Shown: positions 12,241 to 30,700 of the stretch, one piece after another
How the letters are laid out: each line of letters opens with the position of its first letter
Position numbering within the stretch: the first letter of the stretch is position 1
Assembly (NCBI RefSeq): GCF_963676685.1
Contig: NC_092352.1
Location: 24,924,001 to 24,988,000 of the forward strand
DNA length: 64,000 bases
DNA from: Mytilus edulis
Taxonomy: Eukaryota
Direction: 5' to 3'
Made by a program: the position numbers and the translations under genes
Notes under the pieces: generated by a model
The model's database searches: none
Told to the model about the DNA's origin: nothing
Seen by the model: the letters and a program-made list of their open reading frames with translations, nothing else

Positions 12241-13329
12241 TTTGTCTCATCATCCTATACTGCTGTGCATCATTTTGGTGGCCTAAAAATCCGCTTTCAA
12301 CATAGCAAAAGCTTTCAGTACAAAAACTGCTGACATCTGTGAAACGGTGATGCATGACTGTCAGATTCAGCGGAAGAGTTAGAAGTAGCCCGAGTTGAAG
12401 CAGAAGTAGAAGCGCCTAGCCTAATGTTGACAAAGAACCTGGAAATGAAGCTGAATCTTAACAAACACCAGAGAAACACAAACGAAAGGCCAAATTCGAG
12501 CGTCGATGAACATCATCCGCGAAAACCAGATTGCATATAACAGATTTATTACAAAAATAAATCCAAAAATAATGAACGTTATCGGAGTTTAATAGTTCTT
12601 CTTAAAACGAATCCGATTGATTGTAGATTAAGAAAAAAAATAAAATGTTATTTCCTTCATTTTTTTTAAAATTTATATATATTATAGTTAGAACATTCAC
12701 AAATCTTATTCACTGGTTCTTAGCTCAAAGGTTTCTGTGAGTTATAGTCCTGATCACTTGACATCTGTAGTTTTTTTCCGTCATCTTTTGCGATTGGAAA
12801 ACATAACGGTTGTTAGCTTTACATTTCAACAGGTATCTGTCCACTGCGCAGTAAAACATATGTCAACCATCTGTAACGCAATATTGTGTCTCAGGCCGAA
12901 TCACAGTTTTACCTGTATATAACACGTTCTCATCTAAAATTAGAAATTCTCATATGCCACTTAACTTATTTTTGTGTGAAAAGGCTACAACATTTGTGAT
13001 TATTGATATATTACGCGTTAAAAACTCACTGTATAGCATAAATGATATTTGTTTGTCATCTTTTGGCAAGATTTGTGATCTTTCTTTGTAAATGCGAACC
13101 AAAATTTCATTTTTTTTTATCATAAACCTTTTTCATAGGATGCTAGAATGAACTTTTTTAACACCAAGGAAATAGTTCACGTAAATAAACCCTAAAAAGA
13201 TACTCATTCTGCATTTTTGTTATACTTTTATGTCATTTTTGAAATATATACATTACATAGCATTTACCCATCTTTATTTCAGATGTTTCAATGAAAAGAA
13301 TGCTAAATTAAGTCTTTTTTCTCTTACTT

Positions 13330-14150
13330 GTATTTGTCAGGTCTGTATGCCTGCATACCACCCTGGTGTATGCTAAAACCTCACTGTATGCATATACAAG
13401 TATCTTTCAGGTATGTATACTAGCATACCGACCTGGTTAATGCTAAACTCTCACTCTATGCATATACAAGCATTTTTCAGGTCTGTATGCTAGCATACCG
13501 ACCTGGTTAATGCTAAACTCTCACTCTATGCACATCCTAGTATTTGTCAGGTCTGTATGCTAGCATACCGACCTGGTGTATGTTAAACTCTCACTCTATG
13601 CATATATACTAGTATTTGTCAGGTCTGTATGCTAGCATACTGAACTGGTGTATGTTTAACTCTCACTCTATGCATATACTAGTATTTTTCAGGTTTGTAT
13701 GCTAGCATACCGACCTGGTTAATGCTTATTTTTCACTCTATGCATATACTAGCATTTTTCAGGTCTGTATGCTAGCATACTGACCTGGTTAATGCTAAAC
13801 TCTCACTCTATGCATATCCTAGTATTTGTCAGGTCTGTATGCTAGCATACCGACCTGGTGTATGTTAAACTCTCACTCTATGCATATATACTAGTATTTG
13901 TCAGGTCTGTATGCTAGCATACCGACCTGGTGTATGTTAAACTCTCACTCTATGCATATATTCTAGTATTTGTCAGGTCTGTATGCTAGCATACCGACCT
14001 GGTGTATGTTAAACTCTCACTTTCTGCGTATATAAGTATGTGTCAGGTCTGTATTCCTGCATACAAATCTGGTGTATTTAGAACCTTATATATATATTTG
14101 TTTTGGTATAGTTAAGGTCTGTATGCCTGTATACGAACCTGGGATATGTA
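13330..14150. repeat. ~60-62-bp minisatellite, about 13 units, each with palindrome CAGGTCTGTATGCTAGCATACCGACCTG
   Basis: Directly visible tandem array. Confidence 0.95.
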
Positions 14151-15290: not shown

Positions 15291-17059
15291 TATACTATGG
15301 TAACAATTGTGTATACACTGGAGTTGTAAAAACAAATCCTTAACCAGGAAAGCCAAAGAATTGATGCCTTTTCTAGTAAAGCCATGCATACATTATTAGC
15401 AGGAACAGCAAAAAGACTGGTGTTGTTCATTGGTGTCATAGTTTTCTAGGAAGGCATTGGTTTAACCTATCCAGTCACTAAGAAGTGTTACAATTAAATT
15501 CATAAGCAACACATAAATAGTTACATGAAAGGTATAGCCAATGTTTGAAAAATGCTGAAACGAGAAATGGAAACTACATATCATATACATATATATGTGC
15601 GAGTAAATATTTTACACTTCACAAATTTAACATTGATGTAGCGTGGTCAACTACATCAAAGATGTGATGGTCAATTATACTTAATTTGTTGAATGATCTT
15701 GCATCTTGATTATTAAATGTGACAGTTTGTACGGTACATGAGTTGCACAGTAGAAATGTAATAACATTTGGACGTTTATCAAAGCAAGGTTTAATTTAAT
15801 TTAAGGACAGCGGTTCATAGCACGATTTTGTAAGAAACTTTTTGTATTGATCACTTATATTGGTGTAGTAGCTTAAAGTAACAATTAAGTTGCGATATAG
15901 ATTGTAATGAAGTAACATGTTGTTTTATAGAGTTGGAACTAAGTAACGTTTTGTATTGGAATTTATAACTGTGAACCTGGGTTGTGAACCTTTTGAATAT
16001 ATCATATATACCTGTACTTTTATATGATTAAACATGTGAACATTAAACAGACTTCGTTACTCATATATAGACTGAAGTGAGCCTATATATATATATATAT
16101 ATATGGTGAAATATTTAATAGCTATTTCCTTATGTAAACGGGCAAGAAGGATTAGATCCCAGATACATATATCCAAAGTAATGACTGTCAAAAATACACA
16201 GAACAAAGACCCGTTTAGCGTTACATTTATATCACAATTACTGATTTTAAAGTTTATATGAACTAAGGGTTCTTTATAGTGGTTGAATTGAACTCGTTCC
16301 CTTGAAAAACAAATTGTCGCCATGCATGTGATTGATTGAAGATCAATGAAATATGTCATTTCCTTAGTAACATTCATATTTCCAATTTGAACACTCTTGA
16401 AATGTGCTGTTCTAATCCTTTTGCAATAAATTTATGAATAATTTGTTTGAATTACATCTTTTCTAAAAAAACTAAAAAGCTAAACAAAAGACGGCCAAAG
16501 CTACGTTTTCTTTTTCATTGTATTGTGACAAGTAACCCCCAGGGCATATATTTTTTTATTTTTATATTATGCTGTAAATATGTTATTTCAAATGGATAGA
16601 ACATGAGAATTATTGTGATATTTAGATTTTTGAGACTTGTTGTTATTTTGAGAAAGTTCCCGTACTTTTTCATCTGTAACTTTTTCGGGATCGACCCCAC
16701 TTTAGACATACTTTCTGTCAATTTTGGACAATGACAGCCAAACTTACTTATATACACTCTTTTCTAAAGTCGAATTGAGTTTGAGAATTTACTTTTCCCC
16801 ACTGAAGGTTATGCATTTTGCTTAAACTTGTCGATCTTCGTTTCTGTTACAGACAGCATGTATCGCTATCCGCCATTACTTCAGATGAACGGCTAGCGAT
16901 TTCATTGGTTGATTAAAAGAATAAAGTATTTTACCTTAATTTTTGTAGAAATTGTTATAGAAATGTTTTATTTTACGATTAATGTTAGAAAATGTAAAAG
17001 TTTATATTTTAATAACTTTGTATTCTTTGTCGATTCAACTTGTTAAAGAATGGAGCTTT

Positions 17060-17205
17060 TTGATTGGCTATTGGTTACTGTGCAAGATGGGGCACTTAAG
17101 GGTATCGTGCATGCCCCTGTGCGGTACATTTGCACTGCCGTGCAGTGGCGGGTATTATATAACCTTTCGAAAACGCTGCACTGACGTCACTTTCACGCCA
17201 TTTTA
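17060..17205 (+). promoter_or_regulatory. Putative LTR Pol II promoter
   Basis: ATTGG (CCAAT) boxes at ~17063-17075, TATATAA 17156-17162, CRE palindrome TGACGTCA 17182-17189 overlapping Inr-like TCACTT, YY1-like CGCCATTTT; mirrored in the 3' LTR. Confidence 0.5.
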
Positions 17206-17576
17206 TTAGGGATTGAACCGCTGCCAAAATTTTATTAGAAAGTAAGGCCAATTTTTACGTTTAGAAACTTATTTAACTAAATTTTCTTATTGGAAAAACG
17301 TAATTTTACAGAGATTTTAATGATAATTTCTAGAAGTTTATTTTCATTTCAAAAGTAACTTTTAAAGGCTGTTTTACGAATTTATGGTTCAAAATTTCAT
17401 TGTTTTGGAATTGTAAAGTTTTGTTTAAGTACATTTTACCGGAAAGTTAGATTTTTCTATTTAAGAGTCCAAAGCCAATCAAACTATTTTTGCGTTTAAA
17501 TTATAGACTGTGTTATAGGATTTTAAAGGTATATCTGAGAGTTCTTTGTTACACTTTTATTGTCCTCTATTTTACA

Positions 17577-18618
17577 AGACATACGCTACTAGTAAAGTCT
17601 CTAGTACACTTGTCTACATTTACGCAAATTAAATATTATATTAGATAAGGTAATAGGGACACAAAACATACGCTACTAGTAAAGTCTCTAGTACACTTGT
17701 TTTGTTTAAATAACTATAAATAGGGAGATTAGTTAAAAGACATACTCTACTAGTAAAGTCTCTAGTATTTTGTCCTGATTAAAATAATTGGAATAAGGAT
17801 AAAGGGCTTACGCTACTAGTAAAGTTTCTAGTACATTTGTCCTGTTTAAATAACAGTTACTGTATAAATAGGGAGATTAGTCAAAAGACATACACTACTA
17901 GTAAAGTCTCTAGTATATTTGTCCTGTTAAAGTAATTAAGATAAGGATAAGGGTCTCAGGACTACACTGCTAGTAAAGTCTCTAGCAATTGTCTTGAAGT
18001 AAATAAGAAAACCAAGTTACAGATAAACACTATTTTGAGTAAACTTTGAGATAAATTAGATGGCATATGCTGCTAGTAAGGTCTCTAGCACAATTGCCAT
18101 AATAGCTTAAATTTGTATAAACTGAGATTAATTGATTTTCTCTTCATAAATCTATTTGTACATTCATTTACAAGTAAATACTAAAAAAACCTTTAGATCT
18201 AAGGCATACGCTCTAGCACAGGGTCAGCTAGCGCACTTGCCTCTAAATTTTGTACACCTGATAACGCTCTAGCACAGGGTCAGCTAGCACACTTTCTTGT
18301 GTACTAAAGTTATAACGTTTATAATAAAGAATTTAATACATTAAAAACCTTTTAGAACTTAGGCATACGCTCTAGCACAGGGTCAGCTAGCACACTTGCC
18401 TCTAAATTTTGTACACTTGATAACGCTCTAGCACAGGGTCAGCTAGCACACTTTCTTGTGTATTAAACTGTTGAATATTCTATTGTCTATGTAACGTTAC
18501 CAATTTAAACTCAGAAGTTAGGTACTCAGTTAAACCTTTAAGTGATATATATATACCTCAGATATACCTTGTTAATATTAGACATACGTTACTAGTAAAG
18601 TCTCTAGTACACTTGTCT
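17577..18618 (+). repeat. Array of 12 interspaced ~38-50-nt stem-loops inside the 5' LTR
   Basis: Class A (GACATACGC-TACTAG-TAAAGTCT-CTAGTA-CACTTGTC) at ~17577, 17661, 17738, 17804, 17886, 17956, 18060, 18580; class B (ACGCT-CTAGC-ACAGGGTCA-GCTAG-CACACTT) at ~18202, 18252, 18361, 18411; compensatory changes in the stems. Confidence 0.9.
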
Positions 18619-19021
18619 CTTTGTTATATGTAATATTTGCTACTGGTCTCATTGTTACATACCAGTGTCAGTGTATCTGAAGAGCGAAACCCTAGTCAAA
18701 TAATAAACACACTATTGTTATTCATATTTTTATTGGTTAACTGTAGTCCTTTAATAGTCCATTATATATATTGAAAGTGACCATAACATCATGCCAATAA
18801 TAAAGTATTGAACTTGAAAACGTATTTCCCTTTACTTTAGATTTTAACAAATCTAGCGAGACATAGAGTTTGCTTTTCCAGTCATTATATCTGGTTTATT
18901 GTGTCACCTCAGTTGGTTCTGATTTTGAGATTTAGTCTTGGGTCAAGGTCTTGTGTACGTTCATTGTTTGGGAGTTTGCTGACAACCTTATTTGCCATAT
19001 AGCTCTTGCGCGCTACATTTT

Positions 19022-19039
19022 TGGCATCCTCGGTGGGAT
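19022..19039 (+). other. Primer-binding site
   Basis: TGGCATCCTCGGTGGGAT, separated from the LTR end by 4 T; priming tRNA not identifiable with confidence (partial resemblance to Leu/Asn 3' ends). Confidence 0.75.
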
Positions 19040-19083
19040 CTGCTTGTCATTTGCGGATCCAGTGGTACGAATATCTTTTAATT

Positions 19084-20765
19084 ATGGTAAAAAGGAAGAA
19101 TCCAGCACTACCCAAACCAGGTGAAAGGAGCGAAATAGACAGAGACGGATGCCATCGAGACTGACACAGATTGTAATATGTACACAGACTTTTCAGAGCC
19201 AGAAACTGACGACAGAGATGTTACAGTAATACCAAAAGTAAGCGTGATAAACTTGCCCAGCACTAGCTCTATACCAATTAGTTCAGATATCAGACCAAGA
19301 AGAAGTTTGAGACTGTCCAGGAAGAGAGAAGTCCATACAGAGAGTGAGAGAGAAGAACCTGAAATGCAAAGTCATGGTGACACAGCTGGTGTTTATGGTA
19401 TAATTAAAGGGGCATTTCAAGAAATGACCGGTCAATTGGTGACAGCAATCCAATCAGCATTCAAGGGTTTCCACAGTGATACCAAGTTAACTGAAAAGGG
19501 GGAGACTAGAAAAGCAAAGAAAAGACCAACAAAGTCCAAAAGTGACCCAGGCAGATTACATCCTGTGATGTCCAACTTTGCCATCCAGTCAGACAGTGAT
19601 GATAGTTCAGATGAAAGCAGCTATGAAGATTCTATAGAAGGCAGTATAGATACATGTTACATAACAGAACCCAAAAGAAAACCTGCTATGTCTAATAATG
19701 TTAAATTACCAGCTTATACAGGCAAAAAAAAAATGGGAGGTGTACTACAATAGATTTGAAGCTGTTTCTAAACTGAGTCATTGGGACGACTACACCAAAC
19801 TAGCAGAGCTACTTCCTCGTCTACAAGGAGAAGCAGGTGACTTTGCCTTTGATCAACTTGCCCAAAGAACATTATCAAGCTATACTAGATTAACCAAAGA
19901 GATACACAACAGATTTGGAACTTTCGAGACCAAGAAAAACTACAAAACATTGTTTAATAGACGAAACCAGAAATCTGACGAGAAACCAGAGGCTTATGCA
20001 GCAGAGCTGAAACGGATTTATGACAAAGCTTACAAAAACAGAGATGTGAAAATTAGGCAAGAGGACCTGTTACAAAGATTTCTGATGGGACTTTCTGACC
20101 ATGACAGTAGGGTCCATGTGGAGCTATATAAAGAACCAAACACCATTGAAGAAGCAGTGCAAGAAGTTATCACTTTTACTGAAGCTATAAGTCCACAAGA
20201 AGACCATACAGTAAGCAAATTTAAGAAGCAAGTTAGGCAGGTTAAGGGAAAACAGAAAACTTACAGTAAAAAGGGCAAAGACAAAGGAAAGAAACAAGAT
20301 GACCAATCACTTAGTGAAGACAGTGACCAACCTAACCCTCCTAAACCAGGATTCACCACTGTAGATATTGAACAAATTAAAGATATAATAAAGCGAGTAA
20401 ACTAGGAGCAAAGGAGAGATGAAAACATACAGAAACCAAATGGGTACCAGGGGAACTCCCATTTTAGCTCTTCACCAAATTATGTACCAGATTCTAACAG
20501 TTACAATAGAAGAGAAAACATAAATACTGCAAATCCACCAAGTCAACAGGGGTATGGTAGTCAAGATACAAAGAAAAATTTTGCTTGTTATTATTGTGGC
20601 CAGCCAGGACATTTTGCCAGGAACTGCTTTAGTAACCCAAATCGACAACCCGACTTTAAAAGAAGCCAACCATGGAATGAAGGAAGAACAAGGGAGGTTA
20701 CTCCACCAACTCTAGATTTTAGGTCAGGGAAAACTGAGTCTTTCCCTGAAATAGCTTTAAACTAG
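19084..20765 (+). pseudogene. gag: gag (capsid-like domain plus CCHC zinc knuckle), disrupted
   Basis: VKLPAYTG/KKWEVYYNRFEAVS..W..KLAELL..LQGEA and RRNQKSDEKPEAYAAELKR capsid motifs; CYYCGQPGHFARNC at ~20586-20627; frameshift in the A10 run at 19724-19733 and TAG at 20403; start position uncertain. Confidence 0.9.
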
Positions 20766-20798
20766 AGAGGGTCAACTCCAATGACCAGGAGCTGACCC
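20756..20798 (+). other. Programmed -1 ribosomal frameshift signal (gag to pol)
   Basis: T TTA AAC slippery heptamer immediately before the gag TAG, 6-nt spacer, hairpin GGGTCAACTCC-AATGACCA-GGAGCTGACCC; the -1 frame is open into the protease ORF. Confidence 0.85.
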
Positions 20799-23700
20799 AG
20801 GGTTTTCAGGAGAAAGGTCAAATTTTGAGAGAGGAGAATAAAGAAGTGTCACATAGCAGCAGTAGTTCAGTAGAGGTTTTGAGTAGAAATAAAAGTAGTT
20901 TTAATGAGGTTATTGATTTCTCACAGGGTGAGAATGAAAATTTATGTTCAAGCTGTGACGACAGCAGTGAACAAAACTTGATTAGTCCACAATTTATTGG
21001 ACGTCAAGTACTCCGCAGCGAAGGAGTTTATATTGAGGGTCATGTGCAAGGCACTGAAGTGAATTTTACAGTTGATACAGTGGCCTCTCGAACAGTGTTA
21101 TCGAGAAGGGCTTTTCAACAAATACCATTTGCTAAAAGACCCCTCTTAAAGAAGTCAAATATGCTGGCTAGTGCCGATGGCAAACCACTACATGAGTTAG
21201 GGAAAGCCATTTTTGACATCAAATTAGGAGATTTACCTTTTGAAATTGAAGTTGTAGTTGCAGAGATTGAGGACGAAGCCTTGTTGGGTCTTGATGTACT
21301 TATGAAGGCAGATTGTGGACCAGCTAATTTAAGATTAAGCGACGGGATTATGCTGCTAGGTGATACTTCCATTCCCTGTCAACAAATTGGCTTACCTGAA
21401 AGAGTAAGAAAAATTAGAGTAGCTGATAATTTTTCTATACCGCCCAGAAGTGAAATGCTTATAGATGTTTTTATAGATAGATATGAAGATGACCAAATTT
21501 TAGGATCCTTTGATTTTGTTTTAGACCCCACGGAAGATATATTACAGAGATACCCAGTTGTTATGGCCCCTACTATAGTTAACATTGAAAAAGATGTAAC
21601 CAGTTTAGTTAGAATATTAAACCCTTTTGATACAGAGTTTACTTTATATCAAGATACAGTTATTGGAGAAGCTGAAAGCTTGATAAAGGAACCAGAAATT
21701 TTAGTTTCATGCGAAGATAAAGCTGAAGTCAGTAATTTTTCAGTAGTTAGACGTATTAAATTAAGTGACCATAAACCAGTTCAGTGGGAAACCAACACGG
21801 GAATTATTAGGAACATTTCAAAAAAGGGACTGCAGATGGTGGGAAAAGTGGTATTGTTCCTGATCACTTACAGGATTTATTTTTAGAATCTACTAAAGAA
21901 CGTTCAGCAGAAGAATGTGATATTATTTGTAATTTATTAAATAAATTTTCAAATGCTTTTTCTAAAAATGACATGGATTGGTTTAACTAATTTAACAGAA
22001 CACTGTATAGAGACAGGGGATGCCAGACCAGTGAAGCAGCCACCAAGAAGAGTACCTTTGGCCTATGCTAATGAGGAAAAGAAGTTGGTAGACCAGATGT
22101 TACAACAAGGGATTATCCAGAAATCGCACAGTCCATGGGCATCTCCACTGGTTTTGGTTGTGAAGAAGTCTGGTAAGCTGAGACCATGCTGCGATTTTCG
22201 CAGGCTAAACAAGCTAAGTCGGCTCGATAGTTTTCCTATTCCACGCATACAGGACTGCCTGGATACTTTGAGTGGTTCTACCATTTTCAGTACTTTTGAT
22301 TTGATCAGTGGTTTCAATCAGATCCCTGTAAAGAAAGAAGACATCCCTAAGACTGCATTCGTGACTAAGTATGGTCTATTTGAATACAAAACTCTCCCGT
22401 TTGGTCTTTGTAATGGGCCGTCCACCTGTCAAAGACTAATGGAATTAGTTTTAAACGGTTTACAGTGGCAAACTTGCCTAATTTACCTGGACGACATTAT
22501 AGTCTTCTCCCCTAGTTTTGACCAGCATATTGAAAGACTAGAAGAGGTGCTCCTTAGAATTTTGGAGGCAGGGTTAAAGCTGAAACCAGAAAAATGCACT
22601 ATGTTAAAGTCAGAAGTTGCATTTCTTGGTCATGTTGTATCAGGAAAAGGGGTTCAACCAAATCCAGATAACATTGCCAAAATTTTAGCTTGGTCAGTGC
22701 CAACAAATGTAACTTAAGTCCGTCAATTAATTGGGATGGGTAGCTATTATCGTCGTTTTATTAAAGATTTTTCTTCTCTTGTGAAGCCTCTAACAGAGCT
22801 CACTAAGAAGTCAAATGCATTTATCTGGTCGAATGAGTGCCAAAAATCTTTTGAACAACTTAAAGAAGTATTTATGAGTCCAGAAATAATGGGATATCCT
22901 TTAGACAAGGGAGATTTTATATTAGATACGGATGCAAGTGATTTTGCCATTGGAGCAGTTTTGAGCCAAATTCAAGATGGAAGACCCAGAGTGATCGCTT
23001 ATGGCAGTCGTACCTTAAATAAAGCTGAGTGCAATTATTGCATTACAGACAAAGAATTGCTGGCAGTCCGGTATTTTATAGAATATTATAGGCAGTATTT
23101 ATTGGGTAGAAGTTTTATGGTCAGGACTGACCACCAGGCCTTGATATGGTTATTTAGCCTTAAAGAGCCTAAGGGTAGGATTGCCCGGTGGATTGAAATA
23201 CTATCCGCTTTTGATTTTACTGTAGAATATAGACCAGGCCCCAAACATGGAAATGCAGATGCTATGTCACGATGCATAAACCCCCGTGAGTGTGATTGTC
23301 CCCAAACAGACCATATGGAATATTTGAAATGTGGTCCTTGTGCGAAATGCACAAGAAGAGCTCGTGACATGGTGACTTCCATGATTTTCCCCCCTTTTAT
23401 AGAAGAAAAGAAAGTTTTTAAAAGTCTTAATGTAGTAAAGACAAGGAAACAGACAGAGGAAGCTAATACTTGGACCATTTAGAAAACAGGACATACTATA
23501 CCAGAGCTAAAGAAATTACAAGAGGAAGATGAAGCCATTGGCCATATTTTTAAATGGAAAACAGATGGGAAGAGACCGCCATGGAGAGATGTGGAAAGTT
23601 TGAGTCCAGCTACCCGACATTATTGGCACCTTTGGGAATCCTTATTTTTTAAAGAGAATTTACTCTTTAAAGAATTCTCTAAGCGAGATGAAACTGCTGA

Positions 23701-24838
23701 CCAAATACAGTTTTTAACCCCACAGAAATTGAAACCTGAAATCTTAGCTCAAATGCATAATTCCATTACATCTGGGCATTTGGGAAGGAAAAAGACAAAG
23801 GCAAAGCTTTCCCAGAGATTTTATTGGTATGAGATGAGAGAGGAAATCACCATATGGTTAGCAAAGTGTGATATTTGCCAGGCAAATAAACCTCCAGTAA
23901 AAGGATACAGGGCCCCTTTAGGAAGTATGCCTACTGGTGGACCATGGGATAGATTGGCTACTGATATTTTAGGCCCTCTTCCTGTCACACCAAGACATAA
24001 TAAATATGTTTTAACGGTAACAGACCATTTTACAAAGTGGGTCGAGGTTTTTCCTGTACCGGACTCCACTGCTGTTACCTGTGCTTACTTGATTTTAAAT
24101 GATGTTATATGTCGTTATGGTTGTCCACTTGCCTTACACTCTGATCAAGGTCGCAACTATGAAAGTGATATTTTTCAAGAGCTGTGTTCTATGTTAGACA
24201 TTAGAAAAACAAGAACCAGTGTAAGAAATCCAAATGGTAATGGTCAAACAGAGCGATTTAATCGTAGTTTACTGTTTATGATTAAATCTTATTTACAAGG
24301 TGAACAGACAGACTGGGATTTAAATCTTGGTTGTCTTGCAGGTGCTTACCGGTCTACTCCGAATGAATCTACAAGTCTTACTCCTAACTTGTTGATGTTA
24401 GGAAGGGAAATCAGGTTTCCAGTTGAGGTGACACAAGCAAAAGTTTTGGTTCAAGGTGAAGTCCAAGTAAATCCAGGCGATTTTGTCTGTGAATTAAGAG
24501 AGAGGTTGCAAAAGGCTCATAGTGTTGCCAGAAAACATTTATCAGCAAATGCTAAAAGGCGTAAAGATTACTATGACCAGAAAGTAAACTTTGTCATTTA
24601 TAATATTTTTGATAAGGTTTGGTACTTAAACGAGACAAGGAAGGAAGGCATAAGTCCAAAACTTCAACCCTTATACTTGGGACCTTGCCTTATTACCAAA
24701 AAGTTGAATGAAATTAATTTTGAAATACAACTAGATGCTAAGGGAACCAGAAAGGTTATTAATCATAACAAGTTGAAACCTTACATTGGTGAAAACATAC
24801 CCAAGTGGATGAAAATAGTTGAAAAACAAATTTCTTAA
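20756..24838 (+). pseudogene. pol: pol: protease, RT, RNase H, integrase (HHCC, DDE, GPY/F), disrupted
   Basis: VDTVAS (DTG degenerate), LPFGLCNGP..YLDD, LDTDASDFAIGAVL..TDHQAL, H..GH..C..C, TDILGP..HSDQG..TERFN, LYLGP; frameshifts at ~21825 and ~21977, stops at 22715 and 23480. Confidence 0.96.
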
Positions 24839-25261
24839 CTGTTGTTAATGGCCGGTTAAACTCCATTATCCTTTGTCTGTACTATACTTGAGTGATAAAC
24901 TGAAAATATAAAAATAAATTTTTGTAAATATCAGTAGAGATATCAAATATGAATTCATTATTTTTATGAATTCTTCCAAAGAAATCTAACTTGACAAGTT
25001 AGGGATCAAATCTATATTTTGCTTACCAATATGAAAATTGTTAAGTATTTAATTTAATTTTAAATAATATAAACTTGGTGTATGAAATTTTTATATACCG
25101 TTTAATAAGTATGTAATATAAACGTACCTTCTTTTGGCTTAAGGGTATAATTATCTCCCCTGTATAAAGCTAAAATAAACTTCAGATACACTGCCAGGTT
25201 ATTTCTGGGACCAGACCTATTAAACTGGACAAGAGTTTTAAAGGTCCTATACTCTTTTTAG

Positions 25262-26506
25262 ATGAGTTTCCAGTATGATGCCGCCAAGGCCAAGAGAATG
25301 GCAACCATCTGTCTTCTCTGTACTGATTCTCCTGCTTATATGGGCCAGAAGCATAGAGTTGTAACACACATTTTGGTGAACCATGTGTCAGTTTCGAGAA
25401 CACCTTACTTCTGCACACTTTGCCAGTTTAGATGCACCAACATGGATACTCTGAAACAGCATGTGAAATTTCATAGGCCTCATCAGACATTGAAGGATAG
25501 CTTTTCAGCCTTGCCAGACAAGGACTACTTTCTTATCTCAGATTCACCTTACTTCCCGTAGGCAGGAAGAGATTTTAAACTGTTGCCTAGGCAGAGACCC
25601 GGTTTGGGCACTACAATAGACCCAGTAGAATTGAGTTCAGGAAGCAGTACTGGTGGAGTATCGCCTCCCACTGTACCAACATGTGTGATACCAGAACGGC
25701 CAGTAGGAAGGGCCACTGTTTACATACCATGTTTTATGCCACCACCAGAATCAGAACCAGTCCAGTTTGTAAATTACACTTCTCCATCTGATATTTCCTC
25801 ATATCTACCTCCACCTCCTTTCGACTTCAACCCAGGACACTGGTCATCACCCTCCATCCAAGCTTCACCACCCTTGCCAACAGAAACCAACATTGTTCAG
25901 GAAATAATACAGGAGAACCAGGCTGCCCTTGGGATTGACCTCCAGTACACAAACACCATAGATTTTTTTGATTTACCAGAATCGCCATTGGTATCCACAC
26001 CAGAACTGGCCTCTACAGTGAGGAACATCATTATGAGAGACAGAGAAATAGGGGAAGAGGAAAATTTGTTGCCCCAGCTGTTAGGTGATAGCAACCCACC
26101 TGTATCACCCTCAACAAACCATCCAGCCACGGAATGGAATGGTGTTCCTCTTAGCCAAGGTCCAGAACTTCATTCATCCTCATCCTCCTCTTCATCTGAT
26201 TGCTCTGCTCTGGGAGAGGTGAAACAGTCAATATCCACTTTACTAGAGAACACTGCGGCAGAGCATTCAAAGACCAGAGAAAGTATTGGCCAGTTGGGCA
26301 CGGTTATTGAAAGTCTGGTGTCGCAGGTACAGGGTTTGAGATCAGTGGTAAGGGAGCAAGGGGATGAAATCAGGAGATTAAAGAACGATCGACCGAACAC
26401 AACTACCATCGTAAACAGATCCAGAATTCAGCAAAGGCGCCGGACGCCGACACCCAGCAGACAGAGATTTGGCCATCCACTTCCACCTGCAAAAAGAAGA
26501 AGATAA
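25262..26506 (+). CDS. Accessory ORF3 in the env position: 2 C2H2-like zinc fingers, Pro/Ser-rich region, coiled coil, Arg-rich tail/NLS; one in-frame TAG at 25559
   Basis: ORFs 25262-25561 and 25583-26506 share a frame; C-x2-C-x15-H-x4-H and C-x2-C-x12-H-x3-H; heptads LGTVIESLVSQVQGLRSVVREQGDEIRRLK; ends RSRIQQRRRTPTPSRQR..PPAKRRR; ATG directly preceded by CTCTTTTTAG. Confidence 0.75.
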
Positions 26507-26724: not shown

Positions 26725-27021
26725 AACAAGAATGTGTCCTCAGTACACGAATGCCCCACTCGCACTATCATTTTCCATGTTCAGTGGACCGTGAAATTGG
26801 GGTAAAAACTCTAATTTGGCATTAAAATTAGAAAGATCATATCATAGGGGACATGTGTACTAAGTTTGAAGTCGATTGGACTTAAACTTCATCAAAAACT
26901 ACCTTGACCAAAAACTTTAACCTGAAGCGGGACAGACGGACGGACGAACGAACGGACAGACGGACGGACGCACAGACCAGAAAACATAATGCCCCTCTAC
27001 TATTGTAGGTGGGGCATAAAA
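26725..27021 (-). mobile_element. Non-autonomous Helentron-associated (HINE / pearl-CvA-like) element nested in the Gypsy 3' UTR
   Basis: AACAAG end with subterminal ATGCCCC, internal (GACG/GAAC)n microsatellite, terminal hairpin ATGCCCCTCTAC-TATT-GTAGGTGGGGCAT, A/T-rich insertion site. Confidence 0.75.
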
Positions 27022-27564: not shown

Positions 27565-28958
27565 TGTGACAAGTAACCCCCAGGGCATATATTTTTTTAT
27601 TTTTATATTATGCTGTAAATATGTTATTTCCTTGTTATAGATAAGATATATGTTTTGAATTGTTAATAATGTTATTTATTCTATATGAGTGCTAAGTTCC
27701 TATGATAATAGAACTAAAATGTTTGTTTATTGTTCATTGAAGAGATATTTTCATAAAATAATCCAAGTCAGGAATGTTTTCATTTTTGCATAAATTGTAA
27801 ACATCAAGATTTTTGTTAAAATGACTTTCCATATATTTTTATGTTTACCTAGTCATGGTAAATGCTTTAATAATTGTGTTGTGTATTGACTTGTATCAAC
27901 AAATGGATAGAACATGAGAAATATTGTGATATTTAGATTTTTGAGACTTGTTGTTATTTTGAGAAAGTTCCCGTACTTTTTCATCTGTAACTTTTTCGGG
28001 ATCGACCCCACTTTAGACATACTTTCTGTCAATTTTGGACAATGACAGCCAAACTTACTTATATACACTCTTTTCTAAAGTCGAATTGAGTTTGAGAATT
28101 TTCTTTTCCCCACTGAAGGTTATGCATTTTGCTTAAACTTGTCGATCTTCGTTTCTGTTACAGACAGCATGTATCGCTATCCGCCATTACTTCAGATGAA
28201 CGGCTAGCGATTTCATTGGTTGATTAAAAGAATAAAGTATTTTACCTTAATTTTTGTAGAAATTGTTATAGAAATGTTTTATTTTACGATTAATGTTAGA
28301 AAATGTAAAAGTTTATATTTTAATAACTTTGTATTCTTTGTCGATTCAACTTGTTAAAGAATGGAGCTTTTTGATTGGCTATTGGTTACTGTGCAAGATG
28401 GGGCACTTAAGGGTATCGTGCATGCCCCTGTGCGGTACATTTGCACTGTCGTGCAGTGGCGGGTATTATATAACCTTTCGAAAACGCTGCACTGACGTCA
28501 CTTTCACGCCATTTTATTAGGGATTGAACCGCTGCCAAAATTTTATTAGAAAGTAAGGCCAATTTTTACGTTTAGAAACTTATTTATTTAACTAAATTTT
28601 CTTATTGGAAAAACGTAATTTTACAGAGATTTTAATGATAATTTCTAGAAGTTTATTTTCATTTCAAAAGTAACTTTTAAAGGCTGTTTTACGAATTTAT
28701 GTACATTTTACCGGAAAGTTAGATTTTTCTATTTAAGAGTCCAAAGCCAATCAAACTATTTTTGCGTTTAAATTATAGACTGTGTTATAGGATTTTAAAG
28801 GTATTTAGTATCCAGTATCCAGTCATTATATCTGGTTTATTGTGTCACCTCAGTTGGTTCTGATTTTGAGATTTAGTCTTGGGTCAAGGTCTTGTGTACG
28901 TTCATTGTTTGGGAGTTTGCTGACAACCTTATTTGCCATATAGCTCTTGCGCGCTACA
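27565..28958 (+). repeat. 3' LTR (1394 bp)
   Basis: Near-identical to the 5' LTR but carries an extra 270 bp (27631-27900) and lacks the ~1.35-kb hairpin block and a ~42-bp segment. Confidence 0.95.
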
Positions 28959-30479
28959 GTATACATGCTAGTAGTCAGCTATTAAAATTGTAACTAACAC
29001 GTAATAATATGTAGATTTATAAAAAGTTTGCCAATGAAATCTCCTTGTTTTATTGGTCATTAACAATACAGGGATGAATCTTAGTGCTATTGTTGTAACA
29101 TTAAGGGGCTTTATCACAACTATTAGTGAAATAAAGTAACTGTATCTGAAGTATCTTAAAAAAAGATGCTCATAAATTACCCTGTTACAGTATTGATTTA
29201 AACAGTCTAGTGGCGGATTAAGATATTTTCATAAAGGGGGAGGGGGTTCCAGCCAAGGTTCAGTGATTCCTATATAATCAACCAAATGTTTCCCACAAAA
29301 GCGGGGGCGGGGGGGGGGGGGGCAGGTACCCTTTGTATCTGCCTATGGGACCCAACATGAAAAATAAGAAATGATAATGTATAGCAAAACAATTCACGAA
29401 AAAAACCGGAAAAAATTGGAACCAATGAAAACTTCAATAGTCAGGCTCCTGACTTGGGACAGGCATATAAAGACTATATAGTGTGGCCGGTTTTAACATG
29501 TGAGCGCTCGTCTTCCCTTTTTTTTTTTTACCTGGGACAGTTGTTTCCCTAAAAGTTGTAAGAATAAGACATGAATATCCAGAAGTTTCAAAAGGGGGAT
29601 GAGATAGGGAGGGCACTGCATGACTTCTTTAGAGATGGACGCTTCAGTACTGTTTCCCTCAATAAATCAACTAAAGTTTTTCCACAAAGCACTGGCATAG
29701 CACCCCCTCAAATTCTACCTCTTGTATGTGTACGTACTACATGTTCAAGCCGACCTCCAAAAAAGAGGGTGTTAAATGAAATCGTGAAAAATGTACAAAA
29801 ACAGCTAGGTTTACGTACCATAAATACATCCGACATTCTGTTTTGCTTCTGGTTTATTCAAATCAAGATAATAGAGCGTATTTTTGTCCATTTTCTTCTC
29901 CGTGAGGGGAACTCCTTCATTGATCATTCAAATTGTTTACATTTATAAATGACGTCATCTAGATGGAGTGCGTGACTCCGCAGATAAATAGTCCTTTTTC
30001 TTTGACTTTTTAATAATTACCAATACCAAGCTTAAGTATAAACAAAACAGGTTGTTTTGTAATCAATTGCTATTATTTTAATTAAGTGTACTGGTAAAGT
30101 AACTTGTGTAAGTCAAGGCTATCCATCTATATCCCTCCGCCTTACGTCAGAATGTCCCTGACGTCATATAAATTTTGGTCAACAACTTCGAACCTTGTAC
30201 AAATTATGATCGCCTCATTTTTCCGTAATTTTAATTTGCAAACAAAACAGATAACTGTCAGGTCAATAAAGCGATCATAGTCATGGAACTTGAGAATTGG
30301 TTTTCATTTATAGATTTACAACAGTGAACGCTTTACCGGTTTGCCTTGCAAATTAACTCTTTTCTGTTTACCAACGGGAGAAAATAAAGAGGTCAGTGGT
30401 AGGCTTTTAGTTTTTTAAAAAAACTCGAAATCGGCAATAAAGTAAAACCACAACTATACTGACGCAAAGGATTTTTTGG

Positions 30480-30700
30480 AACACCCAGGTTCGTATGCTA
30501 TCATACAGACCTGTGAAATACAACATCTGATTCAATATTTGCTGTTCTGCATACACCAGGTGCGTATGCTAGCATACATACCTGGGAATGCAATGTATTA
30601 ATTAAATGTAGACATTAGCATAAACCAGGTACGTATGCTAGCATACAGGCCTGAGAAATGCAAGTTAATTTATTACAATTCAGTTCAGCATACACCAGGT
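30480..30700. repeat. Inverted, more dispersed copies (3-4) of the 13.3-kb palindromic unit
   Basis: CCAGGT(T/G/A)CGTATGCTAGCATACAGACCTG-like units. Confidence 0.85.

Follow-up and report, generated by a model that had tools for sequence, protein, structure and literature searches.

A double zinc-finger gene behind pol in a mussel Gypsy element and its possible role in the element's own expression

The 64,000-nucleotide stretch of Mytilus edulis DNA analysed here (the window; positions 24,924,001 to 24,988,000 of contig NC_092352.1, assembly GCF_963676685.1) contains a Gypsy element with an additional reading frame, ORF3, behind pol, in the place where env would be expected. The locus raises the question of whether ORF3 is a gene of the element and, if so, what its product does. 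The element is bounded by TG...CA LTRs at 16524–19017 and 27565–28958, with the 4-bp target duplication GTAT outside both, and has the PBS and PPT of a Gypsy LTR retrotransposon as well as, according to Pfam, gag followed by PR-RT-RH-IN in the Ty3/Gypsy order (coordinates are those of the window, plus strand throughout). The 5' LTR carries a 270-bp deletion at 16588; the primer binding site behind it (19022–19039) is complementary to the 3' end common to host tRNA-Arg(TCT) and tRNA-Lys(TTT) genes. Gag (19084–20765), in which Pfam recognises a CCHC knuckle, is broken by two frameshifts and one stop, and pol (PR, RT, RNase H and IN; 20750–24838), in the -1 frame, by four stops. The 3' LTR is preceded by a purine run and lacks approximately 1.37 kb of internal LTR through three deletions. 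A high-copy repeat of about 295 bp with a GACG microsatellite and a terminal hairpin (26725–27020, no strand assigned), which we take to be Helentron-like, is inserted in the 3' UTR and is foreign to the element, being missing from three sibling copies. With six mismatches over 1117 aligned bases between its 5' and 3' LTRs the window copy is young; given its broken gag and pol, the deletions in both LTRs and the repeat insertion, it is also dead.

ORF3 starts 423 nt past the pol stop (24838). The original prediction of one frame of about 414 codons with a single TAG was correct: the frame spans 25262–26506, ends in PPAKRRR-TAA and is interrupted at codon 100 (25559–25561). A DNA search of the 1.37-Gb genome with ORF3 returned 15 matches, among them the intact copies that had been sought in related Gypsy elements: three siblings are open throughout (418–420 codons, 95–96% protein identity), and the remaining matches (74–85% DNA identity) are decayed. 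Since the three siblings are uninterrupted, the TAG is a private lesion of the window copy and not a readthrough signal; programmed readthrough was rejected on the same ground, four older copies being open across this codon as well. Open frames of 414–420 codons in a genome of 34% GC, together with a third-position bias, are beyond chance, and the closest named proteins to that of the window are from Mytilus. It is virtually certain that ORF3 is a real gene encoded by the element.

Selection on ORF3 was estimated as dN/dS from Nei–Gojobori counts. Pairs with dS above 0.04 gave values of 0.08–0.19, comprising 0.11, 0.18 and 0.19 for three pairs of the window's family (F1; dS approximately 0.07), 0.08 for a pair of family F3 (p = 2e-5) and 0.18 for a pair of family F2 (p = 0.02); the comparison of L047 with L051 (0.11) rests on 21.5 synonymous and 7.5 non-synonymous differences (Fisher p = 6e-8). 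The three closest pairs, with five to six synonymous differences, lie at 0.45–0.64, the one tested being non-significant; the window copy against its nearest sibling gave 0.45 (non-significant). No positive selection on ORF3 was seen, dN/dS being well below 1. Between families, synonymous sites are saturated and identity is 63–73% for Pol, 44–52% for Gag and 35–41% for ORF3. All nine older copies tested have a strong excess of third-position mismatches (29/25/142 at positions 1/2/3 in L005). Together, these values show that ORF3 is under purifying selection, and its predicted conservation in sibling elements withstood both the dN/dS and the third-position test.

ORF3 also travels with pol. The Gypsy elements of families F2 and F3 are complete and laid out like F1, with a Gypsy pol upstream of ORF3 in all three families. 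Searching the genome at the protein level with residues 1–108 of ORF3 gave 58 matches. Across 38 further genome stretches, the finger domain was found in 36, with an integrase upstream on the same strand in 25 of these; in the other 11, which have no pol in the stretch examined, no frame exceeds 152 codons, and hence no host parent gene of ORF3 was seen among them. In public records, Gypsy pol precedes the homologue in five of seven loci, as a whole pol in L066, L067 and L071 and as an integrase end in L070 and L072, the upstream DNA of L068 and L069 being too short to judge. Gypsy pol thus stands before ORF3 across lineages at 33–71% integrase identity. Integrase and finger distances are correlated over 12 elements (Spearman 0.64, Mantel p = 0.0006, inflated by two near-identical pairs), and the pairs F1/F2, L067/L071 and L092/L089 recur in both trees, whose supported pairs agree. 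Pol linkage and co-divergence with integrase show that ORF3 has been inherited with pol, and they exclude the recent host capture or separate insertion that the original prediction had named as its own refutation. The family is large: phmmer at E ≤ 0.001 found 186 representatives, 150 of which were listed, corresponding to at least 186 clusters at less than 50% identity. Its smallest natural protein forms (225–254 aa) occur in compact elements at 33–40% integrase identity (L090, L092 and L097; L088, L089 and L111), where ORF3 begins 80–110 nt after integrase, the LTRs measure 0.5–0.9 kb and the PBS is that of another tRNA. Elsewhere (G000:C12:1097500-1125400; L056–L058), two F3 elements lie in tandem about 10.8 kb apart, apparently with a common LTR.

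The N-terminal part of the protein is a double zinc-finger domain with a conserved C-terminal extension to approximately residue 108 (25310–25585). Two C2H2-like fingers had been predicted and are indeed present, with the ligands C17, C20, H36 and H41 in the first and C51, C54, H67 and H74 in the second, each at least 90% conserved in 122 aligned rows; finger 2 reads C51-x2-C54-x12-H67-x6-H74 and thus closes at H74 rather than at H71, a position that is Tyr in 72% of the 122 rows. Both fingers have the C-x2-C...H...H zinc ligands of the classical C2H2 type, whereas the H-x6-H of finger 2, found in 87 of 122 rows, falls outside the classical H-x3-5-H spacing. There is no TGEKP-type linker, and the finger matches of the window protein are all below curated Pfam cut-offs. 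In finger 1, helix position 1 is K/R in 92% and position 3 is R in 82% of 91 rows; in finger 2, the recognition-helix residues are variable, unlike those of a classical DNA-reading finger. The AlphaFold model (pLDDT 82, with 83–94 over residues 10–110) shows two fingers, with a long kinked helix in the second, and a short extension. The best sequence matches in the PDB are the C2H2 transcription factors Ikaros, Aiolos and CTCF (E 1e-5 to 1e-3). Foldseek gave no match in the PDB at E ≤ 0.001, which says nothing on fold novelty, and for residues 1–118 of the homologue P0011 the nearest ESM Atlas clusters, at 0.95–0.97, are unnamed. A structural search with finger 2 (VIA) placed U1/matrin-type RNA-binding fingers first, all at background level with Z of at most 4.0 (3.2–4.0 for residues 40–85), SF3A2 being matched at Z 3.9 (rmsd 1.6, 37 aligned residues) and TUT1, JAZ and U1C-like chains being among the top. 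Five of the 122 rows match zf-C2H2_jaz weakly, and zf-met reaches 17 bits, below its cut-off of 21.2. The fingers may bind LTR DNA or nascent LTR RNA.

Behind the finger domain follow a P/S/T-rich and acidic region, a heptad region and a basic tail. The original prediction that ORF3 is not Env was borne out: the best 19-residue Kyte–Doolittle mean is 0.95 in the window protein and exceeds 1.6 in none of 43 full-length homologues, and no env or fusion family appears among the Pfam matches up to E = 1, nor among the 25 of 36 families shown for the 122 rows. The predicted coiled coil (residues 317–376 approximately, 26210–26389) has counterparts in the homologues, 31 of 43 full-length proteins having a heptad score of at least 4.5, compared with 2.3 in shuffles, at 70–90% of the length in most of these 31. 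As for the tail (26420–26503), which contains S/T-P sites and the NLS-like end PPAKRRR, its basic character is conserved, the final 40 residues of 57 proteins having a median K+R content of 0.275, compared with 0.11 for the post-finger region, but the exact PPAKRRR ending singled out by the original prediction is family-specific.

Short motifs were counted in the disordered part of 57 homologues and compared with local shuffles, which ignore kinship. The patterns for NES, CtBP, KEN, NLS and others were standard ones, that for NES being a crude test. A CtBP motif (PxDL[ST] or P[LIVM]DL[ST]) occurs in 10 of the 57, twice in three of these, against a shuffle mean of 0.3 and maximum of 2. In a tree of poor resolution its carriers are scattered over several branches, with none in the window's branch; the canonical PxDL[ST] is missing from the window family and its neighbours F2 and F3 (none in P0002, P0011 and P0014), and it recurs in four of six further proteins found with a carrier-rich alignment. 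The window protein has an acidic LxxLL-type helix, ENLLPQLL (26060–26083), whose pattern [ED][ND][IL][LM]x[QE][LI][LM] is found in 14 of 57 homologues (shuffles 0.0). Acidic LxxLL-type helices are also found in activation domains. Enriched as well are a D-LL-xx-A helix (11/57, shuffle 1.6), KEN (15/57, shuffle 3.2), NLS-like K[KR]x[KR] (29/57, shuffle 17.2) and loose QT[DE] (10/57, shuffle 3.2, maximum 8). Strict leucine-rich export signals (2/57 against 6.8 in shuffles), Arg clusters (4/57 against 11.6) and RS repeats (4 against 3.4) are not enriched, nor are LC8 (TQT), PxVxL, SIM, EAR and SUMO patterns in the same 57 proteins. Further C-terminal motifs recur among the homologues P0031–P0150, namely [LVIM][KR]S[VTI][VLI] (16/57, shuffle 1.0), [RK]A[IV]Rx[LMQ] in the coiled coil (11/57, shuffle 0.1) and TP[VLI]xDE (9/57, shuffle 0.1). 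Of these motifs, PxDL[ST] is the one whose partner is known, and it points to the co-repressor CtBP. A nucleic-acid-binding head, co-regulator motifs, a coiled coil and an NLS-like tail make up the layout of a transcription regulator, and the predicted nuclear, oligomerising, nucleic-acid-binding regulator fits this conserved architecture.

How the gene might be expressed is suggested by conserved splice sites. The polypyrimidine-AG expected directly before the ATG is there, TACTCTTTTTAG (25250–25261) forming a polypyrimidine-TAG acceptor that abuts the ORF3 ATG. In ten of ten lineages a pyrimidine-rich YAG lies 0–13 nt before this ATG (distances 0, 0, 1, 8, 13, 0, 8, 3, 3 and 4; where two or three ATGs were present, as in L067 and L070, we scored the one that follows the acceptor), compared with 119 of 1708 (7.0%) and 200 of 2573 (7.8%) background ATGs under the same rule. 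As these varying distances keep no frame, the first exon of the ORF3 mRNA is likely non-coding. Among 28 further loci that retain a Met before the finger, the acceptor is present in 22 and missing in six; many of the 22 are copies from within the same families.

At the other end of the putative intron, the LTRs of F1, F2 and F3 align poorly except for a block consisting of TATA, AAAACG and a single ACGTCA, which in the window (17156–17201; TATA at 17156, the ACGTCA/CRE-like site at 17182–17189, CGCCAT at 17196) is likely the core promoter. GTAAG is scarce, at two to three occurrences per LTR of 2.0–2.7 kb, and lies 58, 59 and 53 nt past the single ACGTCA in F1, F2 and F3. By this positional conservation, AAA/GTAAGG (17239–17247, intron start 17242) is the candidate major splice donor. 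Both LTR donors put forward in the original prediction exist as 9-mers, and the one at 17242 is conserved in the three families; that at 17529 is not, lies outside the seven best-scoring donor-like LTR sites and was rejected. No clear donor was seen behind the TATA in the 522-bp LTR of L128. The poly(A) signal, AATAAA(GTAT) at 18799–18804 and roughly 200 nt short of the LTR end in all three families, lies downstream of the 17242 donor within the LTR. Between donor and poly(A) signal, the window LTR has 12 short palindromic repeats, CTAG-N8/N10-CTAG (17589–18609), which are candidate binding sites; they are family-specific (12 in F1, none in F2, one in F3), and no repeated cis-element common to the F1–F3 LTRs was found. 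A second promoter at a TA-rich stretch before the poly(A) signal, giving a short R region, was considered less likely, the stretch being present in F1 and F3 and unaligned in F2. Near the LTR end (18860–18881) is a second acceptor-like site, TTGCTTTTCCAG, which is not conserved in the F2/F3 alignment and could excise a long LTR leader from gag RNA.

Four RNA runs under one species label, of each of which 6–18% was read, covered ORF3 at a mean depth of 0–1.2, mostly with the first mate on the plus strand, and gag-pol mostly at 0. The 15 of 122 joints shown all lie in the inserted repeat and include no LTR-to-ORF3 junction; none of the 15 DNA matches begins at the acceptor, as a processed (intron-less) copy would. 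The inserted repeat itself is very abundant in the RNA reads (depth 1300–3200), which come from many loci. The predicted spliced ORF3 RNA is therefore supported by conserved splice sites but not by a junction read in the four RNA sets, and we consider ORF3 likely to be expressed by a splice from 17241 to 25262.

Based on this layout, we propose the following hypothetical scenario, to which we give about an even chance of being right, in which the ORF3 product is a nuclear self-regulator of LTR transcription: (i) splicing would join the donor close to the LTR cap site with the acceptor before the ORF3 ATG; (ii) the basic tail would import the protein into the nucleus, where the coiled coil would oligomerise it; (iii) the fingers would bind the element's own LTR DNA or nascent LTR RNA; (iv) co-regulators would be recruited via the acidic LxxLL-type helix in the window family and others, and CtBP via PxDL[ST] in other branches; and (v) LTR transcription would be controlled, probably as by a brake. 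Since spliced and genomic RNA would come from one promoter and the repressor from the spliced RNA, such control would amount to negative feedback on the element's output. The relevant part of PMC12992792 identifies PLDLS as a CtBP motif and describes the recruitment of CtBP in the fly piRNA pathway via short motifs, CtBP being thought to suppress transposon promoters. Against the self-regulator stand the borrowing of the CtBP argument from other branches, 47 of 57 homologues being without the motif, and the structural search, which puts RNA-binding fingers first for finger 2, with Z of at most 4.0. The variable recognition helix and H-x6-H spacing of finger 2, the lack of a repeated cis-element common to the LTR families, the read sets with their low ORF3 depth and no LTR-to-ORF3 joint among those shown, the six loci with a Met but no acceptor and the L128 LTR with no clear donor also count against it. 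A broader statement, that an old and widespread invertebrate Gypsy lineage is 'complex' in having a foamy-like LTR and its own zinc-finger regulator, with a CtBP throttle in several branches, is offered tentatively.

The LTR layout and finger 2 also suit the main rival, a Rev/CERV-like factor that binds nascent element RNA and lets unspliced RNA escape splicing, premature 5' polyadenylation or nuclear retention, a reading we regard as possible and somewhat doubtful. Because the donor precedes the poly(A) signal, a full-length transcript has to avoid 5' polyadenylation as well as splicing; according to PMC3694450, a donor before the LTR poly(A) signal is special to foamy viruses, and U1 at the donor suppresses 5' polyadenylation. 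The resemblance of finger 2 to U1/matrin-type RNA fingers, U1C-like and JAZ chains included, and the weak zf-C2H2_jaz matches point the same way, as do the 12 small hairpin-capable repeats in the transcribed F1 LTR. The Arg-rich tail, coiled coil and S/T-P sites resemble what CERV is described as needing (PMC10309623, in part). However, the structural Z-scores are at background level, leucine-rich export signals, Arg clusters and RS repeats are not enriched, and the CtBP motifs would have no role in this model. An RNA-fate factor and a self-regulator could be combined in one protein, by analogy with foamy Tas, for which the pertinent passages of PMC13220597 describe both DNA binding and splicing.

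It is unlikely that ORF3 acts against host silencing, either by titrating CtBP or other silencing co-factors or as a Tas-like LTR activator, thereby raising output. The fast evolution of the disordered middle would suit such a factor, as would the acidic LxxLL-type and D-LL-xx-A helices, through their link with activation domains. The suppression of transposon promoters by motif-recruited CtBP (PMC12992792, as above) and the precedent of Tas, a 3'-encoded DNA-binding LTR activator in the account of PMC13220597, also speak for it. Yet a decoy would have no need of a double finger conserved for nucleic-acid binding, there is no sign of positive selection, and the activator form differs from the self-regulator only in sign and is inseparable from it here. 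Very improbable, in our view, is a cofactor that travels with Gag or the intasome and serves as a chromatin tether or in nuclear entry: basic tail, coiled coil and zinc fingers could tether in the nucleus, and the target duplications observed are AT-rich 4-mers, but ORF3 is a separate, probably spliced gene rather than an integrase extension, and its co-repressor and KEN motifs point to a regulated nuclear factor. Finally, a neutral passenger, whether an exon recently captured from the host or a separate insertion, that plays no part in the element could claim the broken window copy with its non-significant dN/dS of 0.45 and the 11 of 36 finger loci without pol, and it is refuted by strong purifying selection, third-position bias, pol linkage across 33–71% integrase identity, integrase co-divergence, conserved splice sites and pol-less frames of at most 152 codons with no host parent gene seen among them.

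Among the nearest known systems is CERV of Cer1, a C. elegans Ty3/Gypsy element: in the parts of PMC10309623 that describe it, it is a non-env ORF in the env position whose spliced, nuclear product acts on the element's own expression, in gRNA export, and which has a Cys finger, a leucine-zipper/multimer region and a site of Pro-directed phosphorylation. It differs, in the same account, in its H, M and G-protein-like domains, its single C4-type loop and exons common to gag, whereas ORF3 starts from an ATG of its own and combines two CCHH fingers with a long disordered middle and, in some branches, CtBP motifs. The gRNA-export function of CERV has been demonstrated (PMC10309623, same parts), while ORF3 is likened to it by features and its function is inferred. 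As in foamy viruses (PMC3694450), the candidate major donor precedes the LTR poly(A) signal, and ORF3, as proposed here, would resemble Tas, outlined in PMC13220597 as a 3'-encoded nuclear LTR regulator that couples DNA binding to splicing. By description, Tas differs in being made mainly from an internal promoter, in activating, and in belonging to an env-bearing retrovirus. Ikaros-family C2H2 repressors share with ORF3 the tandem CCHH fingers, a CtBP motif (in some ORF3 branches) and an oligomerisation region (predicted in ORF3), and the Ikaros family binds CtBP; ORF3 differs in having only two fingers, no TGEKP-type linker, H-x6-H spacing and a C-terminal extension, and in being encoded by a transposon. 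Plant LTR elements reportedly carry additional ORFs in the interval from pol to the 3' LTR. An extra non-env gene in this position is also known from the ORF3s of bdelloid rotifer LTR elements; these rotifer and plant ORFs encode GDSL esterases, DEDDy exonucleases and small TM proteins, with no double zinc-finger/coiled-coil protein reported in the portion of PMC5408684 concerned.

The surveys of mollusc and annelid retrotransposons classify clades by RT/RH and do not discuss ORFs, the word 'ORF' being absent from the accessible text of PMC6238403 and PMC8556966, and the corresponding text of an env survey does not mention zinc (PMC13524379). We found no description of the ORF3 family in the literature, with subscription journals, Repbase and the supplements of PMC6238403 and PMC8556966 outside its scope. 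Extra non-env ORFs in LTR elements are thus known, and the double-finger/coiled-coil family, apparently unrelated to CERV, seems to be a new form of them. Complex retroviruses are marked by regulatory accessory genes, CERV is the one worked-out Gypsy case that we found, and ORF3 represents a second, apparently unrelated family, with young copies in the genome of a mussel. Two questions thereby become accessible to testing: does an LTR retrotransposon hold down its own activity by encoding a repressor, and how does an element with a donor ahead of its 5' poly(A) site set the balance of spliced, prematurely ended and full-length RNA? Should the CtBP-throttle reading be true, it would be a transposon-encoded feedback circuit, which is undescribed for LTR retrotransposons.

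The family also accounts for a group of genes that are mis-filed in databases: its copies are labelled there either as 'C2H2-type domain-containing proteins' of the host (Mytilus) or, in symbiont MAGs, as hypothetical proteins. The contig L066 (JBEVXV010000511.1), recorded under a Sedimenticola MAG, carries gag, pol and ORF3 and is a eukaryotic Gypsy element, and the similar proteins P0109 and P0127 are filed under Candidatus Thiodiazotropha MAGs; the ORF3 records in symbiont bins are likely host DNA. Outside the element, the window contains a tandem repeat array of 70–72-bp units (13250–14150 and 30478–30660), with related units 16 kb apart. A long tandem array in which tRNA-Arg(TCT) genes alternate with genes called as tRNA-Lys(TTT) lies in G000:C4:50724000-50787000 (L077, 1445–2732). 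The two kinds are identical at 64 of 74 positions, the entire 3' end included, so that the array looks like an anticodon switch between amino-acid families; the 17-mer common to the tRNA-Arg/Lys genes has 252 matches in the genome, some of which are PBS sites.
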